IMG/VR virus record: IMGVR_UViG_2579778606_000008
Origin: a virus
Taxonomy: Duplodnaviria; Heunggongvirae; Uroviricota; Caudoviricetes
Strand: one strand, 5' to 3'
DNA length: 35,013 nucleotides
Positions 19,074 through 19,964 of the stretch are shown in pieces. Within the stretch, counting starts at the first letter, position 1. Every line of letters begins with the position of its first letter. The position numbers and the translations under genes were made by a program. The notes under the pieces are model-generated. The model was not told where the DNA came from. It saw nothing but the letters and a program-made list of their open reading frames with translations, and searched no databases.

Positions 19074-19964
19074 ATGAATAAAAAATATGAACTGGTTGTT
19101 AAGGGGATAAATAATTACGGGGATAAGGTTACTGTTACTGTGAAGTCGGAAGGTGACGGGCAAGCGTCGCTGTTGTTGCCAGATGTGGCGATTAGTCTTG
19201 ACCGTACTGAAGGTGCCACGCTGGAGTTTTACGAAGCTGAGGCGAAAAAGCAGGCGAAGCAGTTTTTCATGGATGTTGCTGCCGGGTTATGTGAATGGAA
19301 CGAACCGTTGCCGGAAAAGCGCCCCGTAATTTTAGAGGCGCAGGATGTGTTGATAACCTACAAAGGAAAGCTACCGGGAAGAATTACTTGTTCTCTGAAG
19401 ATGCCGCCGTCAACACTGCGGTCAGAAAAAGATGATGTTGAATCACGTATTGAAAAACTGGAGAGCTACGTCGTTGAGCTGAATAAGAAATGGTCGATAT
19501 TGGTGCCTTCTGGCGATGAAAAGCAGTTTGCTGCGTTTGACGATTATTGTCGGAAAGTGATGAGCAGAAATCTCGCAGAGTGTTTCAGTATTCATAATGA
19601 TAATTTCAGTGACCCGGAATGGGAGTGTAACCGGCCATCCTTTGTTGTATCCGGTGATGCTGGGAAAATAACCATCTCAGAAAATGGGAAAGTAACACCT
19701 CCATCGCACCAGCACAGTGAGGAGCTCATTGAATTTGCCATTGATTACCTGAAGAACAATAAAAAGCAGGGGCTGATGAAGCGCGTTGGCCGTTGCATGG
19801 GATATCTTCAGGTAGCCGCTGAGATTGAAGCGCTGGCCAGTGGTGCTGATAAGGATGCAATTGTGCGGGAGGCTCTTCTTCGTGATTTTAATACTCCACC
19901 CTTTAAAAAAGTGCCGGCTTACTGGCTTCATCCGGGGCTGACTTATCTTAAAGTGCGTATTTAG
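19074..19964 (+). CDS. Hypothetical 296-aa protein inserted between holin and endolysin
   Basis: ATG at 19074 with GGGGAG RBS; AT-richer than its neighbours; no recognisable motif. Confidence 0.5.
   Translation: MNKKYELVVKGINNYGDKVTVTVKSEGDGQASLLLPDVAISLDRTEGATLEFYEAEAKKQAKQFFMDVAAGLCEWNEPLPEKRPVILEAQDVLITYKGKLPGRITCSLKMPPSTLRSEKDDVESRIEKLESYVVELNKKWSILVPSGDEKQFAAFDDYCRKVMSRNLAECFSIHNDNFSDPEWECNRPSFVVSGDAGKITISENGKVTPPSHQHSEELIEFAIDYLKNNKKQGLMKRVGRCMGYLQVAAEIEALASGADKDAIVREALLRDFNTPPFKKVPAYWLHPGLTYLKVRI

Follow-up and report, generated by a model that had tools for sequence, protein, structure and literature searches.

A two-domain YdfR/DUF1327 protein as the likely regular occupant of the holin-endolysin slot in a lambdoid prophage

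What is a 296-codon gene doing between the holin and the endolysin of a lambdoid prophage, and is it an intruder in the lysis cassette or a regular part of it? The question is raised by a 35,013-nt stretch of tailed-virus DNA (IMG/VR virus record IMGVR_UViG_2579778606_000008; hereafter the window, meaning the whole stretch that was analyzed), in which an uninterrupted plus-strand open reading frame (ORF) runs to position 19964, from a GTG at 19071 or from an ATG at 19074 (296 aa). The original prediction, made from the letters alone, had described an unknown gene with no recognizable motif, inserted into the cassette and placed as cargo often is. We find instead that it is almost certainly a full-length, two-domain member of the YdfR/DUF1327 family, which regularly occupies the slot between the holin gene (S) and the endolysin gene (R), and not an insertion. 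The features discussed below are collected in Table 1.

The family assignment rests on matches at several levels. Residues 1-100 match Pfam DUF1327 (PF07041, the YdfR family) at 137.9 bits against a cut-off of 25 (E 1.3e-40, profile positions 1-88 of 93), which supplies the motif that had been missed. The whole protein matches PHROG 1085 (‘unknown function’, 296 positions) from end to end (1-296 of 296, E 3.1e-190), and RefSeq E. coli chromosomes carry the same DNA, 100% identical over 891 nt, under the label ‘YdfR family protein’. One of these is strain 7/2 (NZ_CP023820), whose prophage adjoining potC is 99.99% identical to positions 18307..35013 of the window. Some part of the gene is present in 2703 of 5426 complete E. 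coli genomes and at least 80% of it in 496 of them (~9%). As an object, the gene is thus already catalogued, both in RefSeq and as PHROG 1085, and the earlier description of it as unknown falls away.

Its position, in the class II holin/lysozyme slot of a lambdoid prophage, is the one that characterizes DUF1327 genes. Its size is not that of the K-12 prototype (~100 aa, a single domain), since the window protein has ~195 more residues that include a second conserved domain; this mismatch marks a long-form subfamily that is still inside the YdfR family. The slot itself is close to invariant. Of 80 IMG/VR loci that encode the C-terminal domain, 75 have sequence on both sides, and in 74 of these an S21-type holin lies directly upstream and R downstream, with a modal gap of 8 nt on the holin side (in tblastn coordinates) and of ~40 or ~456 nt on the R side. 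Shigella loci likewise have the holin upstream of the gene and R downstream, as in the window. In the S21-type cassette of DLP12, essD abuts rrrD and the slot is empty, which suggests that the gene lies outside the minimal lysis machinery. YdfR/DUF1327 is thus a non-essential accessory gene with a fixed slot between S21-type holin and signal-arrest-release (SAR) endolysin in lambdoid prophages of Escherichia and Shigella. The small gene that usually fills this slot belongs to the same ydfR/DUF1327 family in a cut-down form, and the Salmonella homologues have two domains, so that ‘inserted’ is not the right word for the long gene.

The longer of the two gap classes on the R side (21 IMG/VR loci) is explained by an antisense ORF, which the window, with its 36-nt spacer, does not have. 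Such antisense ORFs, ~95-116 aa long, occur in other slot variants, where they separate the ydfR-like gene from the endolysin or the holin (minus strand; L003 4192-4506, L008 5849-6145, L010 5902-6252 and L016 2861-3181 in our locus set), and they have no family matches, Pfam included.

The frame of the long gene bears clear marks of translation. Homologues open with MNKK or MKKK, which makes the ATG at 19074 the likely start codon, and the frame ends with TAG at 19962-19964. Ratios of nonsynonymous to synonymous substitution (dN/dS), calculated by the Nei-Gojobori method for comparisons with five or six homologues (those of Stx2_95 and phage 86, the others from four E. coli chromosomes), are 0.18-0.38 for the C-terminal domain, 0.43-0.63 for the N-terminal domain and 0.32-0.62 overall. 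As judged from these substitutions, purifying selection acts along the entire frame and is most pronounced in the unnamed C-terminal domain. Together with Salmonella homologues at ~30% identity, the ratios identify the ORF as a real coding sequence. We also considered a gene on the other strand, but the minus-strand ORF at 19677..20114 has no family matches and the codon-level constraint fits the plus frame. The dN/dS values and the alignment seem to exclude both that the C-terminal two-thirds is untranslated and that the Salmonella two-domain proteins are unrelated.

Alignments and two AlphaFold2 (AF2) models, with mean predicted local distance difference test (pLDDT) scores of 51.6 and 55.6, divide the protein into an N-terminal DUF1327 core, a basic linker, a helical hairpin, a C-terminal domain and a basic/aromatic tail. 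The hairpin, residues 119-178, is the site of most indels between alleles in the alignments, some of them large, and its codons have the lowest GC content of the ORF (39.4%). The C-terminal part is the more conserved: 16 positions are invariant in the alignment between E. coli and Salmonella at only ~30% overall identity, nine in the C-terminal domain (H214, I223, L226, G239, R240, L245, Q246, A248 and A249) and seven in the tail (P276, K278, W284, P287, G288, Y291 and L292). In a Pfam scan of 63 family members no family fell on the C-terminal part, and DUF1327 was the sole recurrent family. The C-terminal domain has no name in Pfam or in the Prokaryotic Genome Annotation Pipeline (PGAP). The 296-aa protein has no transmembrane segment or signal sequence (maximum 19-residue Kyte-Doolittle score 0.75, against 1.70 for the holin and 1.74, at residue 9, for the endolysin), which makes it a soluble cytoplasmic protein by prediction.

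Two side observations concern this C-terminal half. Its strongest motif, at residues ~239-263 (window 19788..19862), has the consensus LKRLGRCMGLLQVAAEIE and reads RVGRCMGYLQVAAEIE in the window. A 25-residue look-alike occurs in PDB 8tch_A, a ‘Pathogenicity island protein’ (MQRLGRAFALLQVTGEV, E 0.17), and the motif weakly resembles a helical repeat of a PhoU homologue (1sum_B, E 0.023); both are below significance, and a literature search on 8TCH turned up nothing relevant. In addition, PGAP often calls only the first 225-336 nt of an intact long gene, as a ‘YdfR family / DUF1327 protein, incomplete, missing C-terminus’ (a pseudogene), for example at 20001-20336 of L004 (strain 7/2), 2501-2836 of L014 and 2501-2725 of L015. 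The remaining ~550 nt of such genes, which code for the best-conserved domain, carry no annotation.

The long gene has relatives in several arrangements. When 1.84 billion cluster representatives were searched exhaustively with HMMER, just 74 clusters at 50% identity came back, so that there are no distant annotated relatives to lend a function, and every named source of family members is Escherichia, Shigella or Salmonella. Matches occur in 106 records of sequenced phages, but only three of these contain the long form (Stx2_95, and phage 86, which was deposited twice). The Shiga toxin (Stx) 2 phage 86 protein gp05 (268 aa) and the protein of the Stx2a phage Stx2_95 (329 aa) have both domains, lie in the same slot and are 70-78% identical to the window protein; they differ from it in the middle hairpin segment, which is different or longer, and in phage 86 an extra antisense ORF follows gp05.

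Short forms are common. K-12 YdfR (b1555, 103 aa, DUF1327), from the Qin prophage, sits in the same slot in the order essQ-ydfR-rrrQ-rzpQ. Its N-terminal domain, of the other allele type, is 47% identical to that of the window over residues 1-74, whereas the linker, hairpin, C-terminal domain and tail are missing, and nothing in the long form corresponds to the last 30 residues of the K-12 protein. Most Stx1a/Stx2c phages and BP-4795 (ORF47) have a 112-116-aa form, annotated as a ‘hypothetical protein’, between S and R with the same flanks and ~85% identity to the window over residues 1-112. The 114-aa BP-4795 gene tracks the window to about codon 110 (..LKTPP) and then joins the counterpart of the 3′ spacer, GGCTGAATATTTAATATATCC-ATG(R), so that a single clean internal event, the loss or gain of codons ~112-296, separates it from the long form. 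The 30-residue C-terminal tail of K-12 YdfR, unmatched in the long form, led us to reject a simple truncation of that protein at the same point as in the Stx phages.

The direction of these changes is suggested by Salmonella enterica, whose prophages encode ‘hypothetical proteins’ of 250-340 aa (e.g. P0200 and P0150) with a diverged N-terminal domain that falls under the Pfam threshold, a coiled coil, the C-terminal domain and the invariant tail. Identity to the window protein is 40-47% in the C-terminal domain and ~30% overall. These homologues lie in the late operon upstream of the holin, not between holin and endolysin; the order is Q, hicAB (minus strand), two small genes, the homologue, an antisense ORF, a class II holin (PF16080), a SAR-like lysozyme and Rz. 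Since they keep both domains, the two-domain form predates the Escherichia/Salmonella split of these prophage genes. From the sequence comparisons, the short YdfR genes of ~100-115 aa, in K-12 Qin and in most Stx phages, are best read as truncated derivatives, with the long form ancestral.

The two modules also occur apart. In a split, order-swapped version found in Stx and other E. coli prophages, the same modules occupy the S-R slot as separate genes in reverse, giving the order holin, a 213-aa coiled coil plus C-domain protein, a 75-aa DUF1327 protein, an antisense ORF and lysozyme (L010, L011 and L012 at 4782-6847, all E. coli prophages, L012 being a Stx phage). Further arrangements include N-domain, linker and hairpin only, hairpin and C-domain only, and others. 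That the modules are fused in some genomes and adjacent in others suggests that they work together. One long-form allele, P0022 (129 contigs), joins a K-12-type N-terminal domain, 81% identical to YdfR 1-74, to a body that is nearly identical to the window protein from residue ~100 on, which identifies the N-terminal domain as a swappable module.

The arrangement of the locus suggests when the protein would be made. The holin stop, TAA at 19067-19069, ends 4 nt ahead of the ATG, so that translation of the long gene is probably coupled to that of the holin, and a Shine-Dalgarno-like sequence lies in the last holin codons; on the other side, 36 nt separate the TAG from the endolysin ATG at 20001. 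A consensus scan of 18300..21600 found no plus-strand promoter-like site, although such a scan may miss weak signals, and the sole terminator-like site in the gene was a weak 7-bp hairpin at 19923-19940. Given these tight gaps and the promoter scan, the gene would be co-transcribed with S and R from the late promoter. The original prediction was borne out on this point, as co-expression with the lysis genes is the natural reading of the packing, and it had also recognized the 296-aa ORF with its good ribosome-binding site and the holin and SAR endolysin on either side, which the Pfam matches and the hydrophobic N-terminus of R bear out (Table 1). The late transcript would need Q antitermination to pass the terminator-like hairpin just upstream of the holin gene.

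The late promoter region itself is expected within 15945..18306, which has the same length as, and is colinear with, rusA-Q-iraM of strain 7/2. This stretch of the window is A-rich (AT skew ~0.6) and holds no real ORFs. Compared with 7/2, twelve blocks are 100% identical and elsewhere ~44% of bases are substituted (764 mismatches), always by a letter that stands earlier in the alphabet (T to A, C or G; G to A or C; C to A), with the reverse classes at zero. The changes look like a data artefact or deliberate scrambling, not biology, and because of this corruption rusA and Q are not intact in the window as given. Rfam matches at gathering level include STnc100 at 17547..17730, partly in intact blocks of this stretch, and elsewhere in the window sok at 13734..13905 (beside hokD), C4 antisense RNA at 4967..5054, isrK at 5079..5155 and DicF at 5390..5441.

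What the protein does is less clear than what it is. Searches for a function were uniformly negative: NCBIfam returned nothing, PDB sequence profiles of the whole family and of the C-terminal domain gave only sub-threshold matches, none below E 0.02, and Foldseek searches of the AF2 models against PDB and against the BFVD viral structure set found nothing significant. Known lysis accessory proteins, such as antiholins, spanins, releasins and holin-like proteins, are marked by a transmembrane segment, a SAR or signal sequence, a lipobox or similarity to a lysis family profile, and the 296-aa protein shows none of these, with no hit among lysis families of PHROG or Pfam. Pfam, PHROG, NCBIfam, PADLOC, PDB profiles and Foldseek thus gave no match to a lysis accessory or structural phage protein, the kind of match that the original prediction had named as its refutation.

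In the literature that we found, one paper mentions DUF1327 in passing, and two surveys of Stx lysis cassettes pass over the gene without discussion; functional work on ydfR comes from a single study (PMC13232886, RNA Biol 2026). There, a genomic two-hybrid screen showed K-12 YdfR 1-72 binding to RNase G and, preferentially, to the N-terminal half of RNase E; the full-length protein was positive against Rne 1-597 in the two-hybrid assay, and Strep-YdfR co-purified Rne 1-598 together with RNA, seen as DNase-resistant nucleic acid. Overexpression changed few transcripts, and ydfR had almost no reads in growing cells. The study also cites a hit for ydfR in an envelope-integrity screen, which we suspect reflects a polar effect on the downstream lysozyme gene.

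By analogy with K-12 YdfR, we tentatively propose that the long form is expressed late and acts in the cytoplasm, where it would dock on RNase E and change RNA decay towards the end of the lytic cycle. The gene would be translated off the Q-dependent late transcript together with S and R, and the 33-kDa product would be soluble in the cytoplasm. There, the DUF1327 domain at its N-terminus would bind the host's RNase E in the catalytic N-terminal half and might bind RNA as well, in line with what is reported for K-12 YdfR 1-72; the helical hairpin would oligomerize the protein, and the constrained C-terminal domain and invariant tail would carry an activity or bind a second partner. As a result, RNA decay that depends on RNase E would change late in the lytic cycle; the long late mRNA, for instance, might be protected. 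Binding of RNase E by the long form, and a change in RNA decay through this binding, we infer from the RNase E binding reported for the 47%-identical K-12 domain. The weak transcriptome effect of K-12 YdfR would fit this proposal because the K-12 protein, so understood, is a stump that lacks the effector half, and the P0022 allele, with its K-12-type N-terminal domain on a long body, counts in favor of the RNase E link.

Phages do modulate RNase E: T7 gp0.7, T4 Srd and phiKZ Dip change mRNA stability during infection. These are early or middle genes of virulent phages and, to our knowledge, none of them lies in a lysis cassette, so the comparison is a functional analogy only, in which the likeness is the kind of role proposed for long YdfR.

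Several points weigh against an RNase E role. The binding evidence comes from the short K-12 form, not from long forms, and the window N-terminal domain is just 47% identical to the domain that was tested. The two-hybrid signal of full-length YdfR was seen only with Rne 1-597, and overexpression barely altered the transcriptome (PMC13232886). RNase E is invariant in E. coli, yet the N-terminal domain exists as two strongly divergent alleles, an odd pattern for a module that docks on a constant target; the AF2 models are mediocre (mean pLDDT 52-56), with no fold match backing RNA or RNase binding; and the fixed place among the lysis genes would suit a role in lysis no less well.

A more speculative version, which we consider doubtful, accommodates both directions: the long form would be the functional two-part effector that is known experimentally only as its stump, with the swappable N-terminal domain targeting the rest of the protein, C-terminal domain and tail, either to RNase E at the membrane or to the machinery of pinholin and SAR endolysin.

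The main rival is a cytoplasmic regulator of lysis timing, which would make triggering later or sharper by binding the short cytoplasmic C-terminus of the pinholin, the membrane-tethered SAR endolysin or the Sec machinery. A model is offered by T4 RIII, which is soluble and serves as a cofactor of an antiholin. Such a regulator would explain the holin-endolysin slot, held in 74 of the 75 IMG/VR loci, in K-12 and in Shigella, and the start codon 4 nt past the holin stop with its probable translational coupling; it would fit the Salmonella homologue upstream of a class II holin, SAR-like lysozyme and Rz, and a partner close to the membrane could be reached by the invariant basic/aromatic tail (isoelectric point, pI, 10.2). 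However, this protein has no transmembrane segment, in contrast to nearly all known regulators of holins, and the slot is empty in the S21-type DLP12 cassette. Most inducible Stx phages have the truncated form only, so the C-terminal domain is dispensable for lysis, and no similarity to lysis PHROG or Pfam families was found. We regard a timing role as rather unlikely.

Cargo, a ‘moron’ gene for superinfection exclusion, anti-phage defence or virulence, had been the expectation of the original prediction, and its observation that the gene is AT-richer than its neighbors is correct (46.2% GC, against 54.2% for the holin, 54.5% for R and 54.9% for Rz). The gene is also present, truncated or absent in otherwise similar cassettes, its alleles are highly mosaic, and some other slot variants carry an antisense ORF in addition. 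Yet the PADLOC defence models gave no match beyond PbeC on the coiled-coil stretch (E 0.018, 11 bits; not significant), the gene has neither a promoter-like site of its own nor more than the weak terminator-like hairpin in the consensus scan, the protein has no export signal or transmembrane segment, and K-12 ydfR has almost no reads in growing cells (PMC13232886). A fixed slot and a two-domain architecture conserved across genera under purifying selection are more typical of a gene of the phage cycle, and we consider cargo improbable. Least of all do we expect a functionless or decaying filler, a mosaic remnant that persists solely through its linkage to S and R: there are many versions that are cut short, split or rearranged, short forms are common and PGAP often labels the gene a partial pseudogene, but the 296-codon frame is intact in hundreds of genomes, the C-terminal domain has a dN/dS of ~0.2 and 16 residues are invariant between E. 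coli and Salmonella, which makes decay very improbable. The rest of the probability belongs to an explanation not yet thought of.

Downstream of R, two small overlapping plus-strand ORFs (20658..20873 and 20798..21019; PHROG 1115 and PHROG 4906, both labelled unknown function) precede Rz, in the position of ant in many Stx phages. After Rz, a plus-strand ORF at 21746..22126 with a lipoprotein-like N-terminus stands at the position of bor in other lambdoid phages and is annotated ‘TonB family protein’ in the identical 7/2 prophage.

Table 1. Features of the lysis cassette and of the long YdfR-family gene, in window coordinates
Feature	Position	Strand	Basis and remarks
Terminator-like 12-bp hairpin followed by TTTTTTATTG	18787..18815	+	Consensus scan; just upstream of the holin gene, inside the late operon
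S21-type class II holin (pinholin), 71 aa, dual start MYQM	18854..19069	+	PF04971 ‘P21 holin S’, E 7e-33; PHROG holin
Shine-Dalgarno-like GGGAGAG	19060..19066	+	Read from sequence; in the last holin codons, GGAG ~9 nt before ATG
Long-form YdfR-family gene, 296 aa, 33.3 kDa, pI ~6	19074..19964	+	ORF; PHROG 1085; RefSeq identity
N-terminal domain, residues 1-75, DUF1327 core	19074..19298	+	Strand-strand-short helix-strand-long helix; AF2 pLDDT ~64-86
Conserved basic linker, residues 76-118 (PEKRPVILEAQDVLITYKGKLPGRITCSLKMPPSTLRSE)	19299..19427	+	Alignment; pLDDT 20-35; short forms end here
Variable AT-rich helical hairpin/coiled coil, residues 119-178	19428..19607	+	AF2 helices 122-146 and 149-172
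C-terminal domain, residues 179-271	19608..19886	+	Three strands and three helices; AF2 pLDDT 61-85; no Pfam family
Invariant basic/aromatic tail, residues 272-296 (FNTPPFKKVPAYWLHPGLTYLKVRI), and stop	19887..19964	+	pLDDT <50; pI 10.2
SAR-type endolysin R, 177 aa	20001..20534	+	PF00959 lysozyme, E 2e-24; hydrophobic N-terminus
Rz i-spanin	21016..21489	+	PF03245, E 2e-47
Rz1 embedded in Rz	21242..21427	+	ORF with lipobox-like LVVSAC

To a phage specialist the gene is an ordinary catalogued hypothetical gene, and what we add, namely the short YdfR genes as truncations, a C-terminal domain and tail that are conserved but unnamed, and modules that occur fused, split or swapped, is useful but not surprising. 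Pfam and PGAP define the family by its N-terminal third, leaving the best-conserved part, the C-terminal domain and tail, unnamed and often unannotated or called a pseudogene. As the K-12 prototype is probably a truncated form, experiments should use the 296-aa protein. About half of complete E. coli genomes hold some form of the gene, with the long form in the ~9% given above, and it adjoins the genes that release Shiga toxin and phage, so that modulation of RNase E or of lysis timing, if true, would matter for how Stx lysogens release toxin and phage. A two-part effector, if that is what the long form proves to be, would mean dedicated late-phase control of host RNA decay or of lysis timing in lambdoid and Stx prophages, would make the C-terminal domain a new domain family, and would represent a new class of soluble lysis-cassette factor.

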